Virus genome (UHGV): UHGV-0120889
Length of the DNA: 64,000 bases
Source: a virus
Direction: 5' to 3' (one strand)
In this document: in pieces, positions 8,432-53,102 of the stretch
Layout: every line of letters starts with the position of its first letter
Position numbering within the stretch: the stretch's first letter is position 1
Translations under genes and position numbers: made by a program
Notes under the pieces: model-generated
The model's database searches: none
What the model saw: only the letters and a program-made list of their open reading frames with translations
Told to the model about the DNA's origin: nothing

Positions 8432-8508
8432 TGGTCTCCACGGAGTGATTCGAACACTCGACCTCCTGATCCCAAATCAGGCGCTCTACCAAGCTGAGCT
8501 ACGCGGAG
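8432..8508 (-). tRNA. tRNA-Pro (anticodon UGG)
   Basis: Hand-folded cloverleaf: acceptor CUCCGCG/CGUGGAG, D-arm GCUC..GAGC, anticodon stem CCUGA/UCAGG with loop UUUGGGA, T-arm GAGUG-UUCGAAU-CACUC, encoded CCA. Confidence 0.8.
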
Positions 8509-8519
8509 TATTTATTATT

Positions 8520-8594
8520 TGGTGGCCCTGGGTGGAATTGAACCACCGTCTGGCGATTATGAGTCGCTTGCTTGAACCTTCCAGCTACAGGGCC
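8520..8594 (-). tRNA. tRNA with anticodon CAU (Met or lysidine-modified Ile)
   Basis: Acceptor GGCCCUG/CAGGGCC, anticodon loop CUCAUAA, T-arm GGUGG-UUCAAUU-CCACC, encoded CCA; Met versus Ile2 cannot be told from sequence. Confidence 0.7.
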
Positions 8595-8595
8595 A

Positions 8596-8671
8596 TGGTG
8601 CTGATGGCAGGACTTGAACCTGCAACCTATTGATTACAAATCAATTGCACTACCAATTGTGCTACATCAGC
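8596..8671 (-). tRNA. tRNA-Thr (anticodon UGU)
   Basis: Acceptor GCUGAUG/CAUCAGC, D-arm GCAC..GUGC, anticodon stem AUUGA/UCAAU with loop UUUGUAA, T-arm GCAGG-UUCAAGU-CCUGC, encoded CCA. Confidence 0.8.
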
Positions 8672-8679
8672 AAAAAAGG

Positions 8680-8776
8680 TGCTAGGTGATGGAATCGAAC
8701 CACCTATGTATTCAACGACTACCTCGTCTATTTTCAGGATTAAAAATCCTCGCCCTTGCCAAAGGGCTTACCTAGC
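8680..8776 (-). tRNA. atypical long tRNA-like gene (about 97 nt), anticodon uncertain (candidate UUU) or pseudo-tRNA
   Basis: Perfect 7-bp acceptor GCUAGGU/ACCUAGC, D-arm GCCC-UUUGGCAA-GGGC and T-arm GGUGG-UUCGAUU-CCAUC, but about 30 extra nt between a short AGGA/UCCU stem (loop UUUUUAA) and the T-arm; no encoded CCA. Confidence 0.4.
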
Positions 8777-8874
8777 TCAGTATGTTGACCATGTTGCTAG
8801 TCGGCGATGACGACTGTAACATTTGATAATCCGGTTCTGCTTCCGGCTTTCGCTTAATTACAAGGTCAACAATA

Positions 8875-8965
8875 TGGCTGAGGGTAATGGAATCGAACCA
8901 TCATCGAGTCATCCTCAACGGGACGGTTTTCAAGACCGCTTGAGCACCATTGCTCCCTACCCTCA
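8875..8965 (-). tRNA. tRNA-Ser (anticodon UGA), long variable arm
   Basis: Acceptor UGAGGGU/ACCCUCA, anticodon stem GCGGU/ACCGU with loop CUUGAAA, long variable arm, T-loop UUCGAUU, discriminator G plus CCA. Confidence 0.7.
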
Positions 8966-9079
8966 TTTATAAACAATACTGATAATGACACTGATTTTCG
9001 AGCAGTTAGTGACTAGTATAAACGACGATAAATATCAATGCCATTATCTGTATGATTTATGCATTTAAAACTATAAATT

Positions 9080-9166
9080 TGGTGGGGAGTGGTGGAGTCG
9101 AACCACCCGAGTCGTAATGACAATAGATTTACAGTCTACACCGCTACCTCTACGGGATAACTCCCC
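9080..9166 (-). tRNA. tRNA-Tyr (anticodon GUA), long variable arm
   Basis: Acceptor GGGGAGU/ACUCCCC, anticodon stem GUAGA/UCUAU with loop CUGUAAA, T-arm GGUGG-UUCGACU-CCACC, encoded CCA. Confidence 0.75.
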
Positions 9167-9170
9167 AATT

Positions 9171-9245
9171 TGGCACCCCGTACTGGACTCGAACCAGTGT
9201 CAACGGCTTAGAAGGCCGCTGCTTTATCCACTAAGCTAACAGGGC
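9171..9245 (-). tRNA. tRNA-Arg (anticodon UCU)
   Basis: Acceptor GCCCUGU/ACGGGGU (two G.U), anticodon stem GCGGC/GCCGU with loop CUUCUAA, T-arm ACUGG-UUCGAGU-CCAGU, encoded CCA. Confidence 0.75.
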
Positions 9246-11634: not shown

Positions 11635-11717
11635 GTGTCCGTATCACGGACAGTTAGTGTCCGTATTACGGACAGATGTGTCCGCGTGACGGACAGTAGT
11701 GTCCGTATCACGGACAG
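11635..11717. repeat. array of four tandem palindromic 19-bp iterons GTGTCCG(T/C)NTNACGGACAG, period 21-22 bp, next to AT-rich tract 11589-11634
   Basis: Units start at 11635, 11657, 11678, 11699; each is an inverted repeat GTCCGT..ACGGAC. Direct observation. Confidence 0.85.
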
Positions 11718-11783
11718 TTACTAACCTCTGTTCCAGAGTGAACATAAAACATACGAATCCTTATAGTACAGATATTTAAGTTT

Positions 11784-12143
11784 TTACTGGTCTAACCAGT
11801 TGTTGACATTCGAATAACTTCTTCTGGTGGCAAAACTTTGGAAAATGTGCATCTTTTTACCTCTCCCTTGTGTGGATATTTCAACCACTCCTGCACATTC
11901 TAAAGTTTTAACGCACGCTGCTGCTTTTGTTTTCTTTATCCCAATATCTGCTGCAATTTTCCTTGTGCTGGGCGTGAAGCGTGAATTTCCTCCAAGCTTA
12001 TACCAGTTGTGCAGGTAGCAGTATACGATCTTGTCATATAAGTCAAGAACAACAACCTCACCAGTTGTGTCATTCAAAACTTTTGACATAGACAGTATTT
12101 CAAGGGGGACTTTAAGATATAGCAGCTTATCCCCATCTTTCAT
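11784..12143 (-). CDS. putative helix-turn-helix DNA-binding protein
   Basis: 119 aa; segment STRKIAADIGIKKTKAAACVKTLECAGVV resembles an HTH; gene ends 67 bp from the iteron array. Confidence 0.45.
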   Translation of the reverse strand: MKDGDKLLYLKVPLEILSMSKVLNDTTGEVVVLDLYDKIVYCYLHNWYKLGGNSRFTPSTRKIAADIGIKKTKAAACVKTLECAGVVEISTQGRGKKMHIFQSFATRRSYSNVNNWLDQ

Positions 12144-12190
12144 ATCTCCTGATTCTCCTTGTGTGGCAATTTTCTTTAAAATAGCAGGGA

Positions 12191-12745
12191 TTACTCCACG
12201 CTGTCAATAGCAAGACTCATTGCAATACGGTATGCCTCTTCTAATGGTAAGAGTCTCCCCCACACATCCCAACCGACATCAAACTGCCTGCCAAACAACT
12301 GCTGTGTGGTTCCGTGAGCATGACCGAACAGTTGGACCGATCCGTGAGGCTTTCTGTTCCACTTTGCAAACTGGTAATGGCTCATACAGATCAAATTCTT
12401 GTTGTGGCGAAGCTCGTAATAATCTACAACCTCATGACCGAACTCTTTCATAATTCTGACAGTCGTCCTTGTGTCATGGTTACCACGAACAAGAATAATA
12501 TGTCCGTTCAACATATTTAGAACATCTGGGAGCAATTTGTTAATATTCTTATCATTAGTGCACGCAATATCTCCTAAGTGAAACACAGTGTCTGCAGGTG
12601 ACACAACAGAGTTCCACTTGGTGATGATCCCCGCATTCATACTGTCAAGATTGTGATCATACTGAGATCTGTGTTTTTGACATGAGTCAAACTCCATGAC
12701 CCGCTGGTGGAGAAAGTGTGTGTCGCTTGTTACAAAGTATTTCAT
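12191..12745 (-). CDS. calcineurin-like metallophosphoesterase
   Basis: Motifs SDTHF, GDIACTND, GNHD, GHAHG; track ORF trimmed to ATG at 12743-12745 (MKYFVTSDTHF) to remove overlap with upstream kinase gene. Confidence 0.65.
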   Translation of the reverse strand: MKYFVTSDTHFLHQRVMEFDSCQKHRSQYDHNLDSMNAGIITKWNSVVSPADTVFHLGDIACTNDKNINKLLPDVLNMLNGHIILVRGNHDTRTTVRIMKEFGHEVVDYYELRHNKNLICMSHYQFAKWNRKPHGSVQLFGHAHGTTQQLFGRQFDVGWDVWGRLLPLEEAYRIAMSLAIDSVE

Positions 12746-12752
12746 ACATTCC

Positions 12753-13220
12753 TCATTTAAGTTTAATGCAGTTTTTAAGCTGGCGTTCCATACGATCCAC
12801 AACCCTGTCTGGAACATCATGAATGCTTTTACTACCATGGCGGTTTTCAACCACGATTACGGTATAACTATACCCATGACTGATCGCCATGTCAATATAT
12901 TCTTGCACATATTTTTCTTTTGTAAATGTATTACTTACCACGATACGGTCGTATCCCATACGCATCATATCTTCTACGTTATCTTTGCACCATTTTGCTG
13001 CAAGTGTTACTTTACTTGCATCCCAGTTGTAATTTCCATCATCGTCGTACCAGAACATGTCGTTCTCAAAATGTGGATACAGACCTTCTAAAGATAGCGC
13101 ACTTGCCAGTGTTGATTTGCCAGACCCTGGTAGACCACGCACGATATATAGCATTTTAGACATAGTAATCCTCCGTTTTAATTTCAACGATAGTATACCT
13201 AACTGTTTTGTTAATTTCAA
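12753..13220 (-). CDS. P-loop kinase (polynucleotide kinase-like)
   Basis: Walker A GLPGSGKST near N-terminus, 155 aa; operon partner of the metallophosphoesterase. Confidence 0.5.
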   Translation of the reverse strand: MKLTKQLGILSLKLKRRITMSKMLYIVRGLPGSGKSTLASALSLEGLYPHFENDMFWYDDDGNYNWDASKVTLAAKWCKDNVEDMMRMGYDRIVVSNTFTKEKYVQEYIDMAISHGYSYTVIVVENRHGSKSIHDVPDRVVDRMERQLKNCIKLK

Positions 13221-13263
13221 GTGTTGACACTAGGTTATTTGTGTGGCAGGATAGACTGACAAA

Positions 13264-14199
13264 ATGACAAATGAGGAACGTATGATGAAGTATTTTAATG
13301 CAGACGACCTAGTTGACAAAGGTCTTGTAACCAGCAGATATCACCCAGACCTTGGGTTAAAGATCTATAAATATGCCAGAAAAGTATTCTACAACAACTT
13401 ATGGCATTTGTCTCCTCGATTACTGGAGTGCCGAGGCATTGTTGTCGGTAATGAAGGAAATGTTGTGGCATGGCCCTTTACAAAAGTGTTTAACTTGGGA
13501 GAAAACTCCACCAACCTGCCTGACAATAAGCTTGTGACGGCGGTAGAGAAAAAGAACGGATTCCTTGGTGTGGTGTCATCTCATAAAGGTGAACTATTGT
13601 TCTCAACAACCGGGTCTCTTGATTCTCCATATTGTAACCTTGCAAAGGAAACCATCCAGGAGCAATGTGGTAATTTAGATCTTATCAAGAAGGTTATGGG
13701 CAATGAAAATATGACATTCATGTTTGAAATTTGTCACCCATCAGATCCGCATATTGTTCAGGAAGATCATGGCGCATATTTGATAGGTTGCAGATATAAT
13801 GATTCTGGAATAATGCTACCAGAAGCAGCTTTAGATTGGATTGCCAAATACCTTGGTGCAAAACGTCCTCACACTGTGCGTGAAATTCCGTTCAGTTATG
13901 CAAAAGAATTAGCTGCAGAAACAAGAGGTGAAGGGTATATGATTCGTAAGCCTTACTACCCTTATGATCTGCAGCTGAAGATTAAGTCTCCATACTATCT
14001 GGCACAGAAGGCCGTAATGAGGGGTAAAGCTTGGAAGATTTGGGATGATGATATCTTTAAACGTGTTGACGAAGAGTTTTACGGCATGGTAAACTTCATT
14101 CGTAACAACTACACAGAGGATGTATGGAACTGCCTCCTGGAGCAGGAACGCCGTGAGATACTCGATTACTATTTCCACAACGAGAACTATATGCAATGA
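13264..14199 (+). CDS. putative RNA ligase / covalent nucleotidyltransferase
   Basis: Motif-I-like VEKKNGFLGVV (KxNG); divergently transcribed from the kinase/phosphoesterase pair. RNA versus DNA ligase not resolvable by eye. Confidence 0.5.
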   Translation: MTNEERMMKYFNADDLVDKGLVTSRYHPDLGLKIYKYARKVFYNNLWHLSPRLLECRGIVVGNEGNVVAWPFTKVFNLGENSTNLPDNKLVTAVEKKNGFLGVVSSHKGELLFSTTGSLDSPYCNLAKETIQEQCGNLDLIKKVMGNENMTFMFEICHPSDPHIVQEDHGAYLIGCRYNDSGIMLPEAALDWIAKYLGAKRPHTVREIPFSYAKELAAETRGEGYMIRKPYYPYDLQLKIKSPYYLAQKAVMRGKAWKIWDDDIFKRVDEEFYGMVNFIRNNYTEDVWNCLLEQERREILDYYFHNENYMQ

Positions 14200-14546
14200 A
14201 GAAGTTGATTGTGTGGCTAGATGACTTGAGAGATCCGTCAAAGTACGGGCTCCAAGACGCTGTTTGGCTAAAGAATTCCTCCGAGTTTATAGATTTTATT
14301 AACGATAATAGAAAGCTCTACAGACGCGTTTCTGAGTGGCATATGGACAACGACCTTGGAGAGGTATTCGAAGGGTACGATTGCCTATCTATGTTGGAGG
14401 AAAAATTTGTATTTGGTAAGCCTCCTGTAGTTGACAACGTGAAGATTTTCGTGCATACTTCTAACCCATCAGCGGCTCGTAAATTCATGCTTGCAGCTGA
14501 CTCGTTTAAAAAGTTTGGAATAGAGATTAAACAAAACATCTACTGA
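14196..14546 (+). CDS. hypothetical protein
   Basis: 116 aa ORF, start overlapping ligase-like stop (ATGA), immediately upstream of the sirtuin-like gene. Confidence 0.4.
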   Translation: MKKLIVWLDDLRDPSKYGLQDAVWLKNSSEFIDFINDNRKLYRRVSEWHMDNDLGEVFEGYDCLSMLEEKFVFGKPPVVDNVKIFVHTSNPSAARKFMLAADSFKKFGIEIKQNIY

Positions 14547-14554
14547 GGACACTT

Positions 14555-15316
14555 ATGCGACGACTGATTATTATCTCCGGTGCTGGTTTGAGCGCTGAAT
14601 CTGGTATTCCCACTTTCCGATCTGGTAGCACTGCAATGTGGGAGAATTTCAGCATCGATGAGGTGTGCAACATCCACACCTTTGCCAAGAACTACTATAA
14701 GGTGCATGACTTTTACAATGCACGTCGTGTAGCTTTAGGCAGTGTTGAGCCTAACCTTGCACATCTTCGGATCGCTGAGTGGTATTCCCGCTGGTCTGGT
14801 CGTGTGATCAACCTTACCACCAATGTAGATGATTTGCTGGAGCGTGCTGGTGTAAAACATGAAGATATTTTACATGTCCACGGGTATTTGCCAGAAATAG
14901 TCTATGAGGACGATGAAGGAAGTGACGTCATTAAGGACATTGGATACTCTGAGGTAGACGCAGGAAAGTATACCTGGGTTAAGCCTAATGTGGTGTTCTT
15001 CGGAGAAGTAGCTCCGAAGTATACAGACATGTATGACCTGTTGACTTCTCTTACGAGCAATGATATGGTTATCCTTGTAGGGTGCTCCAACACAGTTATC
15101 AATTTTAACTGGGAGCTATTCCCTGCCTGCAATAAGGGAACCAAACTACTGATCGTTAATAAATACGACTCACAGCATCTAGAGGAGAATGGCATTTCAC
15201 GTAGTGATATTTACCAGTATGAGGATCGTGGCATCCCAGTTTGGTTTAACGGTGCGGTTGATGCCTTCTCTGATAAAACATTCATTGAGACTGTAGAAAA
15301 CTTTATGGAACTTTAA
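14555..15316 (+). CDS. Sir2 (sirtuin) family NAD-dependent protein
   Basis: N-terminal GAGLSAESGIPTFRS matches the sirtuin NAD-binding signature GAGIS..SGIP.FR; 253 aa. Confidence 0.7.
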   Translation: MRRLIIISGAGLSAESGIPTFRSGSTAMWENFSIDEVCNIHTFAKNYYKVHDFYNARRVALGSVEPNLAHLRIAEWYSRWSGRVINLTTNVDDLLERAGVKHEDILHVHGYLPEIVYEDDEGSDVIKDIGYSEVDAGKYTWVKPNVVFFGEVAPKYTDMYDLLTSLTSNDMVILVGCSNTVINFNWELFPACNKGTKLLIVNKYDSQHLEENGISRSDIYQYEDRGIPVWFNGAVDAFSDKTFIETVENFMEL

Positions 15317-15329
15317 AAGGAGACCTTTA

Positions 15330-16043
15330 ATGCTGAATACTAAATTAATTGACAACCTGGAAAAACTATCCCAACCTGAAAACTACCTTTGGTCTGCCAA
15401 CTGGGTGGAAAACTGGAACCGTGTGGCAGCTAAAGTGAAAAAATCATACACACCATTCGAATTACAGCTTAGCTTCATTAAGGAAGAGTTCAATGAAGTT
15501 TTGGAAGAGCTGGAGAAAGGTGATGGTGGAGATCACCTGCTAAAGGAGGCCTGCGATCTTCACGTTGTCACAAGTTATGCAGCTTATCTTGTTAATGACA
15601 ATCACGAAAAGTGGTCAAACCTGTTTGATAATCCACGAGGTCTTAAGTTCAAGATCGGTGAGTTCTATGACACACTGATCGCTGCGAAAAACACATCCAA
15701 GCAAAGAGCGTCAGCTTACCGTTTAGCGGAGTTGTCAACAGCTTTGCTGTTCCAGCTTCGCGGCGATGTGTGCGGGATGATGCGTAAGGTTCTCAAATCG
15801 AATGACAGCAAGTTTGCACGGGTCAACCATCTACGGTATTCACACGGTGCCAGTGCAGATATGCCTGCTGAACAACTCATAGAGTTGGAGATTAAAGATC
15901 TTGAGCGACGCTTTGATGGTCGATATGAAGGTTTTGTTGCTAAGGAAGAATTCTACAACGGTAATAAAGTTATCATATTCCTTGACAGTAAAGGTAAGAT
16001 CATGAAGCCTTCGAGCTTCAAGGATGTAGCAGAGTATATTTAA
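15330..16043 (+). CDS. hypothetical protein (possible MazG-like NTP pyrophosphohydrolase)
   Basis: Acidic motif FIKEEFNEVLEELEKGDGGDHLLKEACDL resembles MazG EExxE..E..D; weak. Confidence 0.35.
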   Translation: MLNTKLIDNLEKLSQPENYLWSANWVENWNRVAAKVKKSYTPFELQLSFIKEEFNEVLEELEKGDGGDHLLKEACDLHVVTSYAAYLVNDNHEKWSNLFDNPRGLKFKIGEFYDTLIAAKNTSKQRASAYRLAELSTALLFQLRGDVCGMMRKVLKSNDSKFARVNHLRYSHGASADMPAEQLIELEIKDLERRFDGRYEGFVAKEEFYNGNKVIIFLDSKGKIMKPSSFKDVAEYI

Positions 16044-16106
16044 CAACATGGCCGGGATTACCCGGCTTTACTTGTTGTGGAAAGTATGCAAGTGAGGCAG
16101 ATAGTT

Positions 16107-16415
16107 ATGTACAAGCACTCTAGAGATCTTGAAAACGATGCTGTGTTTGGGGATCAGATGAAAGAGTTGGTTAAACTTATAGGCAGGATAGAGGATAAGT
16201 TTGACACTAAGATCTACATCGACAGCAAAGTATTCAACCACAAAATATGGACAAATCTGTGTGTTGGACTACATGGAGATAAAGATGTGGTAAATTTAGT
16301 TGTAATTAAGTTCATAGTGTGGCAGAATAAAACTATAAATTATTACGATCCACACCTGCTTGTTTACCCAATAAAAGATCTATTAGATAAGGAGGACTGC
16401 AATGCCGTTATTTAA
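16107..16415 (+). CDS. hypothetical protein
   Basis: Track ORF trimmed to internal ATG at 16107. Confidence 0.35.
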   Translation: MYKHSRDLENDAVFGDQMKELVKLIGRIEDKFDTKIYIDSKVFNHKIWTNLCVGLHGDKDVVNLVVIKFIVWQNKTINYYDPHLLVYPIKDLLDKEDCNAVI

Positions 16416-16671
16416 TCTTGCTAAACCTGTAGAAGCACACCAGTTTGACGGAAGCTCTTCATCAGTATCTGATCTGCAACGGTGGATTGATACAGGTGTG
16501 TTTACATCGTCACCTGTTCGGACCAGAGATCTTCGTCGCATGTGTGAGCTTGTAGAGCCGTTTGGTAACCTAGTCTTGTACCAGGGTGATTGGCTTGTTG
16601 ATTTTATGGGGGACTGGTTGGTAATGAGTAAAGAAGAGATGTTTAAAATTTTTAAGGAAGAGGCCGAGTAA
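16402..16671 (+). CDS. hypothetical protein
   Basis: 89 aa ORF overlapping neighbours by a few nt. Confidence 0.35.
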   Translation: MPLFNLAKPVEAHQFDGSSSSVSDLQRWIDTGVFTSSPVRTRDLRRMCELVEPFGNLVLYQGDWLVDFMGDWLVMSKEEMFKIFKEEAE

Positions 16672-17954
16672 TGCATCAAATCAAAACAACACTGTACGCA
16701 CTGAACAAAGATGGCAGCTACCAACAGTGGAAAGTATTCACGGATGGTGATAAGGTTATCGTAGAGTTTGGCAAGCTTGATGGTAAACTGCAATACAAAG
16801 AGACGATCTGCACACCTAAGAACGTGGGTCGCGCCAATGAAACTACAGCTGAGCAACAGGCCGAGCTGGAAGCGATCAGTAAGTGGGAAAAACAGGTCCG
16901 ACTCGGGTACGTGGAAAGTATGGAAGATTGTGAGCAAGGTGTTGATCTTTTACCCATGTTGGTGCATGACTACCTGAAGCGTGGCAAGGCACTTAAATTA
17001 CCTTGCTGGATCTTGCGTAAGTTAGATGGCCTTCGTCTACTTGTTGTTTTCCAGAATGGTGAGCCTAAATTTATTTCCCGTGGTAATAAGTCCTACCCTA
17101 TTCAAGGAAAGCTTCTGGAGCAACTTCGCTCTTTCCACCTAACCACCGGGATTAAACAGCTCGACGGAGAGCTCTATATTCATGGTCTACCTCTGCAGAA
17201 AATAGTGTCTCTTGCTAAACGGTGGCGCACACAGGAAGAAATTCAGGCCGAGATCGATAAAGACTACAAGGCAGATAAAAAACGCCGTCAGGCTGCGATT
17301 AAAGCAGGTTTAGCAACATACAAAAACTTCAACAAGGTGGACATTCCTGTTGATGTTGAGCCTGTTCGTGATGATTTGCGTTACGGAGGGTACTGCAGCT
17401 ACGACTTAGAGTATCATATTTTCGATATTCCTAGCGATAAGGTGTGGTGGGATCCTGAAACAGAGTCTGGTCGCTGTAAGGATCTTATGGAGGCAAACGG
17501 TGCTATTACTTCTTTGATGCTTGATCATATTAAGGTTGTTGATGCAGAGCTTGCATATACGGTTGATCGGTGCGAAGAGTCTGTTGGTATATTTATGTCT
17601 GAAGGATATGAAGGTACCATTATGCGTAACTTCTGTGGTAAATATGAGTATGGTCAGCGAACATCTGAAGCATTGAAATGGAAAAAGTTCAACGACGCAG
17701 AGGTGAAAGTTATTGACGTTGAGAAAGATAAGAATGATGAAGGTGTTCTTATCTGTGTTGACAAGGAAGGTGTTGTTGTTAAAATGAAGATGAAAGGCAC
17801 GCACGAGGAGCGTAGCTATGACAGGATGCAGGAAATGATCGGCAAGTTTGTCACCTTCAAATATCAAGCAAGGACAGAAGACAACAACTACCAATTCCCT
17901 GTCGGTATCTGCGTCCGAAATGTTAACCCAGATACTTGGGAGGTTCTGGAATGA
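16671..17954 (+). CDS. lig: ATP-dependent DNA ligase
   Basis: Adenylation motif CWILRKLDGLRLLVV (KxDG active-site lysine); 427 aa. Confidence 0.7.
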   Translation: MHQIKTTLYALNKDGSYQQWKVFTDGDKVIVEFGKLDGKLQYKETICTPKNVGRANETTAEQQAELEAISKWEKQVRLGYVESMEDCEQGVDLLPMLVHDYLKRGKALKLPCWILRKLDGLRLLVVFQNGEPKFISRGNKSYPIQGKLLEQLRSFHLTTGIKQLDGELYIHGLPLQKIVSLAKRWRTQEEIQAEIDKDYKADKKRRQAAIKAGLATYKNFNKVDIPVDVEPVRDDLRYGGYCSYDLEYHIFDIPSDKVWWDPETESGRCKDLMEANGAITSLMLDHIKVVDAELAYTVDRCEESVGIFMSEGYEGTIMRNFCGKYEYGQRTSEALKWKKFNDAEVKVIDVEKDKNDEGVLICVDKEGVVVKMKMKGTHEERSYDRMQEMIGKFVTFKYQARTEDNNYQFPVGICVRNVNPDTWEVLE

Positions 17955-17981
17955 TGTAGGATGGTTTAGTAGGTAACGGTA

Positions 17982-18010
17982 GCCAATTGAATGATGGTTT
18001 TTCAATTGGC
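17982..18010 (+). repeat. perfect 10-bp inverted repeat hairpin GCCAATTGAA-N9-TTCAATTGGC
   Basis: Seen directly between ligase and endolysin genes; no U-tract follows, so a terminator role is uncertain. Confidence 0.5.
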
Positions 18011-18078
18011 ACCTACATAACCACACTATGCAGTGTTGTTGATCGGGTTAGTTATGAGCAAACTGGAGAGTATGAAAA

Positions 18079-18549
18079 ATGAAACTTGATAAAAATGTTC
18101 AACGAAAAGCTTTCTTGGATATGATCGCATATTCGGAAGGAACAGATAATGGTAGACAACCTACCAAGGATCGGGGGTACGATGTCATAGTCGGCGGCAA
18201 GCTGTTCAGCGATTACAGCAAGCATCCAGGTGTTTACGTTAAGCTAAATGCTAAACTTACCTCCTCCGCTGCTGGTCGTTACCAGGTTTTGGAGAAGTTT
18301 GCTAAACACTACATGAAACAGCTAGGATTACCAGATTTTGGCCCTGCCAGTCAGGACAAGATTGCGTTGCAACTGATCCGTGAGTGCAAGGCTCTCGCCG
18401 ACATTGACGAAGGGCGTATCCACGAAGCTATCCGCAAATGCCGTTCCCGCTGGGCTTCGTTACCCGGCGCTGGATATGGTCAGCATGAACAGAAGATCGA
18501 GAAGTTGATCGAGGTGTTTAAAAAGGCAGGCGGCATTGTCCTGGATTGA
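18079..18549 (+). CDS. endolysin, lambda R-like lytic transglycosylase
   Basis: Motifs QRKAFLDMIAYSEGTDNGRQ, GYDVIVGG, DYSKHP, AAGRYQ, WASLPGAGYGQHE closely track lambda R as recalled. Confidence 0.8.
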   Translation: MKLDKNVQRKAFLDMIAYSEGTDNGRQPTKDRGYDVIVGGKLFSDYSKHPGVYVKLNAKLTSSAAGRYQVLEKFAKHYMKQLGLPDFGPASQDKIALQLIRECKALADIDEGRIHEAIRKCRSRWASLPGAGYGQHEQKIEKLIEVFKKAGGIVLD

Positions 18550-18828: not shown

Positions 18829-19293
18829 GTGGAAGACGGACGTTTAATGAGGTCTGAACGCAGGCTTATTGTGCAACTGATCCCAGAAACAGCTTGGTAT
18901 AATAACCTCCGAAACGCTGTGAAGAAGAGTGAGTGGGATAAGATCCGTAAGAAGTGCTACAGAGAGGCAAACTACACTTGCGAGGTGTGCGGCGGTAAAG
19001 GCAGCAAACATCCAGTGGAGTGTCATGAACTTTACACTTTCGAAGAGGGAGTGATCCGGCTTGTCGGACTGATAGCGTTGTGCCCAGATTGTCACACATC
19101 GGTACATCCTGGATTAGCAAATATCCGTGGAAAGTATGCTCAGGCAGTTAATCAGTTGGCTAAGGTGAATAAGATCACCAGAGGTATGGCAGAGGCGTAT
19201 TACCGAGACTGCTTTGCAGAGTGGCGCGAGCTTAGTAAAGTTCCAGAATGGAAGACTGACTTTTCGTGGATAGAGGGTTACCTTGATAGCTAA
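18829..19293 (+). CDS. zinc-finger protein, possible HNH-like nuclease
   Basis: CEVCGGKG...HPVECHELY...CPDCHTSVH resembles CxxC-H-H-CxxC spacing. Confidence 0.35.
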   Translation: MEDGRLMRSERRLIVQLIPETAWYNNLRNAVKKSEWDKIRKKCYREANYTCEVCGGKGSKHPVECHELYTFEEGVIRLVGLIALCPDCHTSVHPGLANIRGKYAQAVNQLAKVNKITRGMAEAYYRDCFAEWRELSKVPEWKTDFSWIEGYLDS

Positions 19294-19576
19294 GAGATCT
19301 GTAAAAGAGAAATTCGATAAGACAGCTTTTGTATTCGATACACCTCTGGACGATATCATCAGGGGTATGCAAGCCTTGTATCGGAAGGCTGAATCTGAGC
19401 AGTTGTCTGAATCAGAACTTTACTGGCTTGGTTGGTGGGAGTTAAACCTGCCTAAAGCTGAAAGCTCTTGTCTGAGAACTGTTAAAACGTGCGCCCAAGA
19501 AAACGCTGCACTTGGAATCTACCACAAAAGGAAAAGATCAACAAAAAGCTCTCCAAGAAAGACTAAAAAGTCTTGA
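19283..19576 (+). CDS. hypothetical protein
   Basis: 97 aa ORF. Confidence 0.3.
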   Translation: MIAKRSVKEKFDKTAFVFDTPLDDIIRGMQALYRKAESEQLSESELYWLGWWELNLPKAESSCLRTVKTCAQENAALGIYHKRKRSTKSSPRKTKKS

Positions 19577-19602
19577 CAAAAGTGTTATTAATCTGATATT
19601 AT
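19573..19602 (+). promoter_or_regulatory. sigma70-like promoter (TTGACA, 17-18 bp spacer, TATTAT)
   Basis: TTGACA at 19573-19578 and TATTAT at 19597-19602. Confidence 0.5.
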
Positions 19603-19635
19603 CGGTCAGATATCTATAAACTAGGAGAACTAGGT

Positions 19636-19944
19636 ATGCTTAAAATTTTTATTGTTGAAGATAAAGATATTGTCCAGTTGTATGCAAACGAGAATCATAA
19701 AGGTATGATTCTGAAGAAGGCAAGCAACCTTCATGAAAACACAATTCAACCTGGCGATGTAATTAAGATCTGTGGTTATATGATACCGGACTCCTTGATG
19801 AAAATAACCCACCACTGGGGGTCTAATCCGTTCCTTTTTGAAAAGTATTGGGATGTTGAGTCACTTATTGCAGGGAGTGATGATGCATTCCATTACAGCA
19901 TCCAACCATCTTGCAGAATAACTAACAGGAGGGTCTTTGAGTAG
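19636..19944 (+). CDS. hypothetical protein
   Basis: 102 aa ORF with RBS. Confidence 0.35.
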   Translation: MLKIFIVEDKDIVQLYANENHKGMILKKASNLHENTIQPGDVIKICGYMIPDSLMKITHHWGSNPFLFEKYWDVESLIAGSDDAFHYSIQPSCRITNRRVFE

Positions 19945-45920: not shown

Positions 45921-46253
45921 ATGAAAGTACGCTTTATTGGTGAAACAATTCCTGTGCATCTCCGGTCTCCTGAGGATTCTGCAGATCTTGCATCTCAAAA
46001 GGCGAGAGGTTATGATAAGAAAGTAACCTCAACTGATGTAGTGCTTGAGGCTACTAGTCTACCTGACCCTGCTGCATTCTTTAATCATTATGGGTACTAT
46101 TTCAGCAATCTGATGAATATCGGTGAGCTTGTGTTTATTAGTGGTGGAGAGATTGTTAGCAAGCTTGGCGGCGATCCGGATGTCTTTCATGAAACCTGTC
46201 CTTTTGCATTTGTGGTAGGTTCAGATGTGGAAGTTATTGAGGAGGTGCGGTAA
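45921..46253 (+). CDS. hypothetical small acidic protein (C-terminus VEVIEEVR)
   Basis: Trimmed to ATG 45921 (MKVRFIGE...). Confidence 0.4.
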   Translation: MKVRFIGETIPVHLRSPEDSADLASQKARGYDKKVTSTDVVLEATSLPDPAAFFNHYGYYFSNLMNIGELVFISGGEIVSKLGGDPDVFHETCPFAFVVGSDVEVIEEVR

Positions 46254-46648
46254 TGGTAAGCCTATACCGTGTTGAGTATAGCTCAGATACTGTATACAAC
46301 GTAAGAAGCAAAGATCGCAGCGACAGAGTGCAAGAAATGTATGTTCTTGCCGACAGTCCGTTATCTGCAGCGTTCAAGGCAGGGGCTCTTGCATCTCGTT
46401 GGAAATTTGAAGGCGGATCTTTCTATGAAGAAACCCTTGAAGATTCTGTTGTTATTTCTTCTGTAGAGGTTTCAGATGACTACGAAGGGAAAAAGTTCGT
46501 AATGCGGCACCCACACAGCAACATTGCGTACTACTGGGATGTTCTGAACAACGAGTGGACCCCAGATCTTCAGAAGGCTACTGTGCTAACACCGTTTTTG
46601 GCAGATAAGTTCCCACCAGAAGGTAATTTATCCGCACTGTTTCAGTAA
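46253..46648 (+). CDS. hypothetical protein, paralogue of 44048-44446
   Basis: 131 aa; KKFVMRHPHSNIAYYWDVLNNEWTP versus KVFVIVHPDSRVKHYWNARTKTWTP. Confidence 0.45.
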   Translation: MVSLYRVEYSSDTVYNVRSKDRSDRVQEMYVLADSPLSAAFKAGALASRWKFEGGSFYEETLEDSVVISSVEVSDDYEGKKFVMRHPHSNIAYYWDVLNNEWTPDLQKATVLTPFLADKFPPEGNLSALFQ

Positions 46649-46724
46649 TTTTCTTGCACACAGGTGTTGACAACGCCAACCCTGTGTGAAATAATACCTT
46701 CATCTTAACAAGACAGGAGACCGA

Positions 46725-46985
46725 TTGATGAAGATTAAATTGAAAAACCTTGAAACGGCAGAGATTCAGGACGGTGTTGATTTCCGTTCTAAAGATGGTG
46801 ACATCTTAGAGGTAAATATTCCAACCTACGAGCTGATTAAAGGTTTTGGCAACGTTCCGGAAGAGGATATTACAGAAATTCTTATGATGTTGATTCTTGA
46901 CGGAACTGTGTTTGTAGGTGAAGGTGAGAACGCTATTGCAATCCCAGGCCATTTTTATGAAGTAGTTGACGAAGAGGTGCTGTAA
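46725..46985 (+). CDS. hypothetical small acidic protein (MMKIKL..., C-terminus YEVVDEEVL)
   Basis: 86 aa; preceded by TTGACA 46667-46672 and AATAAT -10. Confidence 0.4.
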   Translation: MMKIKLKNLETAEIQDGVDFRSKDGDILEVNIPTYELIKGFGNVPEEDITEILMMLILDGTVFVGEGENAIAIPGHFYEVVDEEVL

Positions 46986-50638: not shown

Positions 50639-53102
50639 CACACAATTAGCTGCCCGGCTAAAGTGCTGGAAGCACCTATAACACATCTTTCAACTAAATT
50701 TCCTACCACCACAATCACTTACCTCCCACACATGACTGTTTGCTTGTTTAGTGAGCAGTCATGCCTTGACATTCTTGCCTATCTTGATAAAATTAAGTTC
50801 TTCTCTTTTCTTTTACCGAGTAATTCGGGTTTTCTGTTCTCTTCGGTTTGAAGGGGTATGGAGATACACCTGAGTGAACAGGGTGAACAACCGAACCTTT
50901 GGCTATGGCATTAGCATGGCGAAGCGGACGGGTGACGAAAGAGGGGCCGGAGGACACCAGTCACTGCCATATGATATATGGGTGATAACCTGAAGAGTCT
51001 GAATAAGTGTTTAAGTACCAGTCAGAGGAAAAGGTGAATGGTAGCCGAAGGGGGAGGGGGGTTTCTTGTATCTTTAATTTGTATATTATGTATACACTTG
51101 TAAACCAACACCATCTGAATTTGTTTACCACAGAAAGCGGATAGAGACAAATATTACCTATTAAACTTGAATTATTTATAGAAAATACCACAACACCACT
51201 TAAGTATTTGATTTTACACATAAATCCTACAGATATTCACCCTCCATATTTAACATACTTGTAACATATTCCATACTCTACCTGTCTGATCAATTTCCCC
51301 AACTACACCCACCATATTTTCCCTGTCTGTACCACCCCTGACCCGCCGGGAGTCCCGTCATATCTGGCTTTCCAGCAAATATCACACCCACAAATATCAT
51401 TGCCTGAAGAGGGTTTCATCCCATAATACATGCCTTACCTGAAGAGCGCTTCATACACCACGTAAATTTTTTAATTGACCCCCTCCCCGCCGCCGGAGAG
51501 GTTGTCTTTTCCCACACAGACCTGAAGAGTCAGTCAGAAATATCTGAATGGACCCAATTCTGCCCTGTCATGAGCGGTAGCGACTGGAGTGCTGCCAGGC
51601 GGACGAAATGGGAATACTTCTCATTCTTATAATAATTCTCAAATATCGAGGCAGTGAGGAAAATTAATAGGTGAGGCCGTTCACACAGTGGCACAACATT
51701 TGCAACCTATCTTGTGGGGGTGAATGAGAATACCTATCATTGTGAGAATAGTTATCATTACGGGCAATTTAACATAATACCCATTATGCGCACCACTGGC
51801 GATCCATACAGGGATTGATAACATGAGTTACAGTTTACGCATATAACAATCATATTTCTTACTATTTGTGTGGGATATAGTTAGCAGCCGATAGATTAGA
51901 TATTGACCTGTGGACTTCCAACCATCTAGACGTCTAAACGCCCACACAACAAGGATTATACATACATTACTGAATGTAAACAGGGCCGCAAAAATGCTAC
52001 CATACCAGTTTGTAAATTTTTCATGCAGCACTTGACAAAGAGGAGGAAAACTTGTCTGACATAATGTGACCTAACTGACACAACATGACACTTTTACACA
52101 CCTATTAGTTTACACACTGGATTGTTTACATTCCTGATTGTTCACATGCTAACCATTTACATGATTGACTGTTTACACACCGATAATCAGCCATGCCATT
52201 CGTTTGCATGACAATAATTATACATGACAATAATCGCACTGATTATAATTAGCATGACATAATATAAAAGCAGGGCAACTATTAGCAGATCTATAGTTGC
52301 CTTGCTTGTCATGTCATGATTAACTAAATACAAGGCAACTATGATCTGATTAATAGTTTGCAGACAAACTATCACGGGGGTGATGGTTACTGCTTTTATA
52401 TTATGTCGCGACTCCGTCGCGCCATGCCATTCGTTTGCATAGTTGCCTTATTGTTACAGGTAAAATAATTGTATTGTTAATTATTTCTTATCTTTCTATT
52501 AGTCATCTAATGATTCCAGTTAGTATAGTAACGTACAGTAAACATTAGACGACTAAAGATTTCTCTGCTTATGATAACCTAACGTGACAATTTCAGACTG
52601 TTTACGAAAAATGTTGACACCTGAGCTGATTTATGTTATGCAGTTTACACGAATAATTATTTTATGCAGGTATTGACTATTCCGTTATTCTATGGTTGGA
52701 ATAAATACTTAGCAGACTATAGAATGGTGAGCGTACGTAAATTCTGAGATCTGTCGGCTATAGTTATACTCGATTTTTCACGTAGAACACGCTTTTTGGT
52801 TTGTGTAAGTGTATGACTTATAAAGATTTTTAGTTGTTGACAAGATATTGGAGATGTGCATCAGATTAAATTTTGTGCAATAGCTACATTACGTGCACTT
52901 TTGGAAGAAAAAACGTGTAAAAATGGCCCTGCTACCACACAATGAAAGATTATGCAATAGTTATTTTATATGTATATTTGTACAGTGTGTGGGATTAATG
53001 GCTAGTCAATTATTCCACTTGCCAGGTAGGGCCGTTTATGGTAGGAGAAGAGCAGACAAAAAGAAAGGGGCCTTTAAGCCCCTTGATAATTCAATTAAGA
53101 AA

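Follow-up and report, generated by a model that had tools for sequence, protein, structure and literature searches.

The 64,000-nt stretch of virus genome UHGV-0120889 analyzed here (the window) carries, at positions 14555–15316, an open reading frame (ORF) that encodes a sirtuin, or Sir2-family protein, with an intact class III active site. From the chemistry of the family, the enzyme is expected to be catalytically competent and dependent on nicotinamide adenine dinucleotide (NAD+). Protein deacylation, with acyl-lysine as the substrate, is tentatively regarded as its most likely role, at somewhat short of an even chance. The window belongs to an rV5-like myovirus; its positions 13000–17000 are 99.6% identical to Escherichia phage slur16 (Vequintavirus), and at least 80% of this interval is covered by 116 phage records. 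The gene is as follows:

14555–15316, plus strand, sirtuin gene with an ATG start; 253 amino acids (aa), a zinc-free class III (CobB/SIRT5-like) Sir2-family protein

The initial annotation had proposed a Sir2-family gene at this position from an N-terminal NAD-binding signature, GAGLSAESGIPTFRS, which corresponds to residues 9–23 of the protein. The coordinates were exact, and the hidden Markov model search that it called for gave a clear match. Pfam SIR2 (PF02146) was matched with 96.2 bits (E 3e-27) against a gathering cut-off of 24 bits, over profile positions 1–178 of 180, and no other Pfam family matched the protein at E ≤ 0.01. Moreover, PHROG 2162, 'Sir2', was matched at E 9e-110. The closest solved relatives by sequence were human SIRT5, E. 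coli CobB, and Archaeoglobus Sir2 proteins (E ~2e-21), and the similarity to sirtuins is thus far beyond chance. The slur16 counterpart (coding sequence YP_009177525.1) is already annotated as 'Sir2 (NAD-dependent deacetylase)', and the gene is labelled 'cobB', 'Sir2-like protein', or 'sirtuin domain NAD-dependent deacetylase' in near-identical records.

The active-site residues were assigned from an alignment of the window sirtuin with CobB, SIRT5, and four phage homologues. The E. coli CobB query was confirmed to be identical to PDB 6rxj/1s5p, and the human SIRT5 query agreed with the stretches visible in PDB sequence alignments. The GAGxS NAD-binding motif is G9-A-G-L-S13, and the remaining positions were as follows:

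F21 and R22, aligned with SIRT5 F70 and R71; NAD pocket
Y54 and R57, aligned with SIRT5 Y102 and R105 and with CobB Y92 and R95; class III pair, which binds the carboxylate of succinyl- or malonyl-lysine
N90 and D92, aligned with SIRT5 N141 and D143; NAD pocket
H109, aligned with SIRT5 H158 and CobB H147; catalytic His (HG motif)
V147, F149, G150, and E151, aligned with SIRT5 V221, F223, G224, and E225; FGE loop

Among the residues that the initial annotation had listed for checking, the catalytic His (H109) and the NAD pocket (F21/R22, N90, and D92) were therefore present and aligned with SIRT5, and all four zinc-binding cysteines were absent. The catalytic, NAD-pocket, YxxR, and FGE-loop residues were invariant in all 44 members of a conservation alignment of diverse phage homologues with 50–61% identity to the window sirtuin. 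Invariance at this level of identity indicates purifying selection on the active site. When a model was built on the same alignment with AlphaFold2, it had a mean predicted local distance difference test (pLDDT) score of 90.3 and a predicted template modeling (pTM) score of 0.88. When this fold was compared with the PDB using Foldseek, E. coli CobB was the first match (E ~4e-18, template modeling score 0.75–0.84), followed by Sir2-Af1 and SIRT5, and the top 50 PDB matches were sirtuins without exception.

As no Cys occurs between H109 and P144, all four zinc ligands are gone. The same was seen among close homologues, 118 of 120 having 0–1 Cys from the HG motif to PNVVFFGE. In place of the zinc ribbon stands a segment of 34 residues, compared with 37 in CobB, and it was confidently modelled as three strands. 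Given this length and the confident model, the segment looks like a zinc ribbon that has turned zinc-independent rather than a deletion, and the cleft architecture looks preserved. A second change affects the TQN(I/V)D motif, the Gln of which is Thr89 in the window sirtuin; T89, N90, and D92 were invariant in the 44 aligned homologues. The co-occurrence of both changes was surveyed by searching 1.84 billion cluster representatives and classifying the 145 full-length matches by the residue at the TQN Gln position and by zinc class (kept, 3 or more Cys; lost, 2 or fewer):

Gln, zinc Cys kept: 79 representatives
Thr, zinc Cys lost: 36 representatives
Thr, zinc Cys kept: 10 representatives
Gln, zinc Cys lost: 10 representatives
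Ser, Ala, Met, or Cys, zinc Cys in either state: 10 representatives

Zinc loss thus co-occurs with the Gln-to-Thr change among the 145 representatives. The nearest zinc-bearing relatives were found at E ~1e-47, with ~50% identity over the core. Judged from these sequences, the two changes would mark a mainly phage-borne, zinc-free offshoot of the class III sirtuins, for which they provide a simple clade marker.

With respect to the favoured role in protein deacylation, NAD+ would be bound in the conserved pocket (GAGxS, F21/R22, N90, and D92), and an oxygen nucleophile of the substrate would attack C1' of the ribose, with nicotinamide expelled and ADP-ribose transferred. His109 would then activate a ribose hydroxyl for the second step. 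The default substrate would be an acyl-lysine carrying a negatively charged group of the succinyl/malonyl type or an acetyl group, because the Tyr54-x-x-Arg57 pair, the FGE loop, and the CobB-like fold are retained. Host or phage proteins would be the targets, and O-acyl-ADP-ribose would be the by-product. A modification of host proteins, as suggested in the initial annotation, is possible. This role is favoured by the nearest neighbours in sequence and structure, SIRT5, CobB, and Sir2-Af1, which are deacylases. It is also consistent with the charge of the protein: the window sirtuin has an isoelectric point (pI) of 4.81 and a net charge of −15, the pI ranges from 4.58 to 6.05 across 120 homologues, and such an acidic family is more typical of a protein-directed than of an RNA-binding enzyme. 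If correct, deacylation would reveal a means by which large virulent phages remodel the acylation of their hosts.

The genes around the sirtuin bear on its role and were identified as follows:

8432–9245, minus strand, seven phage tRNA genes (ARAGORN, Rfam tRNA)
12191–12745, minus strand, calcineurin-like metallophosphoesterase (Pfam Metallophos and Metallophos_2, E ~4e-6; phrog_547, E 6e-52)
12753–13163, minus strand, P-loop kinase, AAA_33, polynucleotide-kinase-like (Pfam AAA_33, E 4e-10; phrog_505, E 1e-9), with the start as annotated in slur16
13282–14199, plus strand, Rnl1-like RNA ligase (Pfam RNA_lig_T4_1, E 8e-15); ORF open from 13264, annotated start 13282
14196–14546, plus strand, cREC, a cyclic-phosphate-processing receiver-like protein of 116 aa (Pfam cREC_REC PF20274, E 4.5e-15)
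15330–16043, plus strand, MazG/PRA-PH-like all-alpha nucleotide pyrophosphohydrolase of 237 aa (phrog_671, E 3.6e-22)
16050–16067, plus strand, GC-rich hairpin with a T-rich tail, terminator-like, 7 nt past the MazG-like stop
16671–17954, plus strand, ATP-dependent DNA ligase (Pfam DNA_ligase_A_M and OB_2; phrog_114, E 2e-83)

The initial annotation had described the sirtuin as lying inside an RNA-repair and nucleotide-metabolism island, and this description is borne out by the ligase, cREC, kinase, phosphoesterase, and MazG-like genes within 12191–16043. The two flanking ORFs that it had left uncharacterised as possible members of the module, 14196–14546 and 15330–16043, are the cREC and MazG-like genes and form part of the same compact unit as the sirtuin. 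The stop codon of the ligase overlaps the cREC start (ATGA), and that of cREC falls within the GAGGA Shine-Dalgarno sequence of the sirtuin, 5 nt before its ATG. The sirtuin is predicted to be expressed from a unit in the order Rnl1-like ligase, cREC, Sir2, and MazG-like protein. The hairpin at 16050–16067 possibly ends this transcription unit, its position being the only suggestive feature, as the number of terminator-like sites in the region was not above chance.

Single-sequence PDB searches of the ligase, cREC, and MazG-like protein returned nothing useful. When a profile of eight ligase homologues was used, the sole PDB match was T4 RNA ligase 1 (9do4_B, E 2e-8). A Trl1-type ligase that needs a 2'-phosphate was also considered and found no support, since this profile matched T4 Rnl1 and not fungal Trl1. 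Receiver-type acidic residues are conserved in the cREC homologues (WLDDLRD, FDNDLG, and HTSNP). In the MazG-like family, E52, E53, E56, and D76 (EExxE...D) are invariant, and Pfam PRA-PH (PF01503) was matched by nine of ten members, with a best E of 2.6e-5.

Three further observations concern the wider region. Within the tRNA cluster, positions 8678–8776 (minus strand) hold a 99-nt tRNA-like gene with a four-base anticodon (atcc) according to ARAGORN and an Rfam tRNA score of only 35.5 bits; it is labelled 'tRNA-???' in slur16 too and could contain an intron, suppress frameshifts, or be degenerate. Between the MazG-like and DNA ligase genes (16077–16671, plus strand) lie two small conserved ORFs, phrog_7684 and phrog_14585, which accompany the block in ~145-kb relatives. 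At 18829–19944 (plus strand), between the endolysin and exonuclease genes, the slur16 annotation shows an HNH endonuclease and two small 'transposase-like' ORFs, and this stretch may be a mobile-element insertion in the replication/repair region.

To describe how widely this arrangement holds, tblastn matches and a sample of loci were used. Sirtuin homologues were found by tblastn in 1,011 of 50,697 phage records (~2%). The carriers include Vequintavirinae, T5-like Demerecviridae, phi92-like phages, Stephanstirmvirinae, ~145-kb phages of the Mydovirus/4MG-like group, and many jumbo phages, among them phages of Vibrio, Yersinia, Erwinia, and Klebsiella; T5-like phages apparently make up the largest share among the matches listed. 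Some 18–25 'Campylobacter phage' records (MG0656xx, host C. jejuni) are 97–100% identical to E. coli rV5-like phages in the region, which suggests that they are mislabelled or contaminating.

The locus sample consisted of 80 loci, 76 from IMG/VR with 10-kb flanks and four from the phage collection, and was searched with iterated profiles of the neighbours of the window sirtuin. The block of kinase, phosphoesterase, Rnl1, Sir2, DNA ligase, and MazG-like genes was present in approximately 13 of the 80, all of them rV5-like phages or their ~145-kb relatives. Nine of the 13 had cREC, none being seen in three Erwinia-type loci and one truncated locus. Despite an altered gene order, the block stays within ~7 kb at 45–57% Sir2 identity; in the ~145-kb relatives, the sirtuin has the kinase as its immediate upstream neighbour and the DNA ligase as its immediate downstream neighbour.

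Other lineages were arranged differently. The sampled T5-like loci showed neither a cREC nor an Rnl1 homologue within 10 kb of the sirtuin gene, and among the 357 phage records with cREC, none of those listed or tallied was T5-like. The role of the enzyme therefore cannot depend on these partners. T5-like phages carry ribonucleotide reductase genes upstream of or flanking the sirtuin and, three genes downstream of it, a HAD_SAK_2 'Swiss army knife RNA repair' phosphatase (E 4e-20); two tandem paralogues with DUF7415 repeats follow the HAD_SAK_2 gene in two sampled loci (L007, T5-like, 11651–12481; L002, 9494–10324). In ESCO5 (Stephanstirmvirinae, locus L083), the repair block adjoins the tRNA cluster and runs from the MazG-like gene (46163–46888) through DNA ligase, kinase, RNA ligase, and phosphoesterase to cREC (51557–51901), and the sirtuin (17518–18318) lies 28 kb off. 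The ESCO5 sirtuin gene overlaps the end of a phrog_9509 gene and is preceded by phrog_8514, and these two proteins may be lineage-specific sirtuin partners. A distance of ~240 kb separates the sirtuin from cREC in the Yersinia jumbo phage fHe-Yen9-03.

Genes of NAD and nucleoside metabolism were found at further loci. In one viral contig of ~120 kb (L064, 8057–9490), the gene immediately upstream of the sirtuin homologue encodes nicotinamide phosphoribosyltransferase (NAMPT), and a nucleoside 2-deoxyribosyltransferase-like gene lies directly downstream of the sirtuin in another locus (L068). In Klebsiella phage phi1_175008 (L082, 1–2665), NAMPT and phosphoribosyl pyrophosphate (PRPP) synthetase stand divergently beside a cREC-phosphoesterase-ligase-MazG block. 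NAD salvage may be coupled to NAD- or ADP-ribose-handling genes in the L064 and L082 contexts. According to Pfam and PHROG scans, the Sir2 neighbours in Stephanstirmvirinae, T5-like, and jumbo phages belong mostly to families of unknown function. Association with enzymes that process RNA ends or ADP-ribose thus recurs, yet it is lineage-specific and dispensable. The idea that the sirtuin is always linked to RNA-repair genes was ruled out by the ~13 of 80 loci and by the T5-like phages, ESCO5, and fHe-Yen9-03.

This neighbourhood has been described previously. Iyer, Burroughs, Anantharaman, and Aravind (Viruses 2022; PMC9503650) assigned most viral sirtuins to a distinct clade and recognized three neighbourhood types, of which type 2, with Escherichia phage V5 and Proteus phage Mydo as prototypes, comprises a T4-like RNA ligase, cREC, a nucleotide kinase, a MazG-family pyrophosphatase, and, optionally, a calcineurin-like phosphoesterase. 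The window holds this set at 12191–16043, and slur16 holds the same set. In their proposal, the sirtuin removes 2'-phosphates from RNA as KptA/Tpt1 does, and ADP-ribose derivatives are the predicted substrates of cREC and the MazG-like protein; their text makes no mention of a lost zinc site.

Protein deacylation has to be weighed against this background. Many carriers, probably most, have no RNA-repair partners nearby, which favours deacylation. The T4 Pnkp/Rnl1 pathway is not known to make a 2'-phosphate junction, and ligases of the Rnl1 type join 2'-OH ends; the T4 Rnl1-like character of the partner ligase thus counts for deacylation and against a 2'-phosphate route. The neighbouring MazG-like protein and cREC could also be accommodated, as they could degrade O-acyl-ADP-ribose. 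Several points weigh against deacylation. The sirtuin is translationally coupled to a predicted cyclic-phosphate esterase amid genes for RNA-end healing and sealing, and its relatives recur beside HAD_SAK_2 and also beside 2H, Nudix, and cREC proteins (PMC9503650), so that the neighbourhood fits a role on RNA or on ADP-ribose derivatives better than protein deacylation. The NCBIfam CobB models NF040867 and NF001753 gave 103.5 bits against a cut-off of 320 and 122.7 bits against 243, respectively; with scores so far under the cut-offs, the window sirtuin is not a CobB orthologue. Zinc loss and the Gln-to-Thr change hint at changed substrate handling, and no experimental study of any phage sirtuin was found in the literature. 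Recent capture of the host cobB gene was ruled out separately by the ~27% identity to E. coli CobB and the sub-cut-off equivalog scores.

The published alternative, a KptA/Tpt1-analogous RNA 2'-phosphotransferase acting in tRNA repair (predicted in PMC9503650), is possible but considered unlikely. By this route, a metal-independent anticodon nuclease would cut a tRNA, cREC or the phosphoesterase would open the 2',3'-cyclic phosphate to a 2'-phosphate, the kinase would phosphorylate the 5'-OH, and the Rnl1-like ligase would seal the ends. The sirtuin would then move the 2'-phosphate to NAD+, yielding nicotinamide and ADP-ribose 1''-2'' cyclic phosphate, which cREC and the MazG-like protein would degrade. 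Tpt1 acts in two chemical steps that run parallel to the sirtuin mechanism, and the retained His and anion-binding Tyr/Arg pair are compatible with Tpt1-like chemistry. The genomic setting also points this way, with the operon packing through the Rnl1 stop/cREC start overlap and the cREC stop in the Sir2 Shine-Dalgarno sequence, a tRNA gene cluster ~3 kb away, the block held within ~7 kb among diverged relatives with cREC in most of them (9/13), and the HAD_SAK_2 'RNA repair' phosphatase three genes downstream of Sir2 in T5-like phages. Moreover, the proposal was made for exactly this neighbourhood, from three independent neighbourhood types (PMC9503650). These arguments are, however, all of neighbourhood and chemical analogy, and the neighbourhood is not uniform. 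Stephanstirmvirinae keep the repair block beside the tRNA genes with Sir2 28 kb away, Sir2 and cREC are ~240 kb apart in fHe-Yen9-03, neither Rnl1 nor cREC has a homologue within 10 kb of Sir2 in the T5-like carriers sampled, and the cREC matches listed or tallied include no T5-like phage. The 2'-OH-joining type of the ligase and the acidity of the sirtuin family likewise argue against it, and we know of no sirtuin that acts on RNA. If this route were true, the protein would be the first RNA-acting sirtuin and would add a new substrate class for sirtuins, and large virulent phages would possess a eukaryote-style, NAD-dependent system of tRNA healing and sealing against anticodon nucleases.

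Another NAD-consuming activity, either ADP-ribosyl transfer to protein, nucleic acid, or a small molecule, or the making or breaking of an ADP-ribose metabolite, appears rather improbable. Such an activity would link the sirtuin to the nucleotide and NAD metabolism of the phage, and it is consistent with the lineage-varied contexts (NAMPT in L064, the deoxyribosyltransferase-like gene in L068, and ribonucleotide reductase in T5-like phages), with NAMPT and PRPP synthetase adjoining the cREC block in the Klebsiella phage, and with the prediction that cREC and MazG-like proteins process ADP-ribose derivatives (PMC9503650). However, the window sirtuin is closest to deacylases and not to known ADP-ribosylating or NADase sirtuins, and it retains the catalytic His and the YxxR pair. 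Plain NAD hydrolysis is not known to need either of these. In addition, no Macro domain was found by Pfam among the nine neighbouring proteins scanned, and the absence of a Macro neighbour is likewise stated in PMC9503650; a Macro-linked ADP-ribosylating sirtuin of the SirTM type was ruled out on this ground. None of the PADLOC Sir2 models for defence matched the protein, the only PADLOC result being a 13.6-bit partial match to an unrelated candidate model. A defence-type Sir2 or NADase was accordingly ruled out by the missing PADLOC match, the canonical Pfam family, and the lack of a sensor partner (SLOG, HerA, pAgo, or TIR), the neighbouring genes being those of RNA repair.

The suggestion of the initial annotation that the sirtuin counters NAD-depleting (Sir2/TIR-based) bacterial defence found no support and is very improbable: a shared cofactor and NAD salvage genes near some carriers are all that speaks for it, while the sirtuin consumes NAD+ and cannot restore it, has no sensor partner, shows no similarity to the defence Sir2 families in PADLOC, and differs from the enzymes used in the described phage NAD-reconstitution pathways (PMC13464706).

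Among known systems, the protein resembles the class III lysine deacetylases/desuccinylases CobB and SIRT5 in its fold, NAD-binding motifs, catalytic His, FGE loop, and Tyr-x-x-Arg pair, and its 'FYNARR' is identical to that of CobB. It differs from CobB in its low overall identity (~27%), the loss of the four zinc Cys, and the replacement of the TQN Gln by Thr, and from both CobB and SIRT5 in a ~15-residue insertion after N202 and in being a phage gene inside an RNA-repair operon. With defence Sir2 NADases (ThsA, DSR1/2, Sir2-HerA, and SPARSA), it shares the Sir2 superfamily, and those effectors are likewise not known to carry a zinc ribbon. Unlike them, it is a stand-alone protein of 253 aa with canonical PF02146 and no sensor domain, encoded by a virulent phage. 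Tpt1/KptA enzymes work in two NAD+-dependent steps with release of nicotinamide and formation of a 1'',2''-cyclic ADP-ribose species. The window sirtuin resembles them in its association with RNA ligase and cyclic phosphodiesterase genes; it has a Rossmann-type sirtuin fold without homology to these members of the ART superfamily (PMC9503650), and any functional analogy is putative.

The gene annotation is already known from near-identical public genomes, and the neighbourhood and the RNA hypothesis are known from PMC9503650. The sequence finding itself therefore adds little, and the remaining interest is biochemical. Compared with the type 2 neighbourhood of that paper, the window is one instance, agreeing in both phage group and gene set. 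Beyond that description, Stephanstirmvirinae and the T5-like phages sampled lack the linkage to Sir2, translational packing was seen for the four plus-strand genes, and the sirtuin belongs to a zinc-free clade with Gln-to-Thr at TQN.

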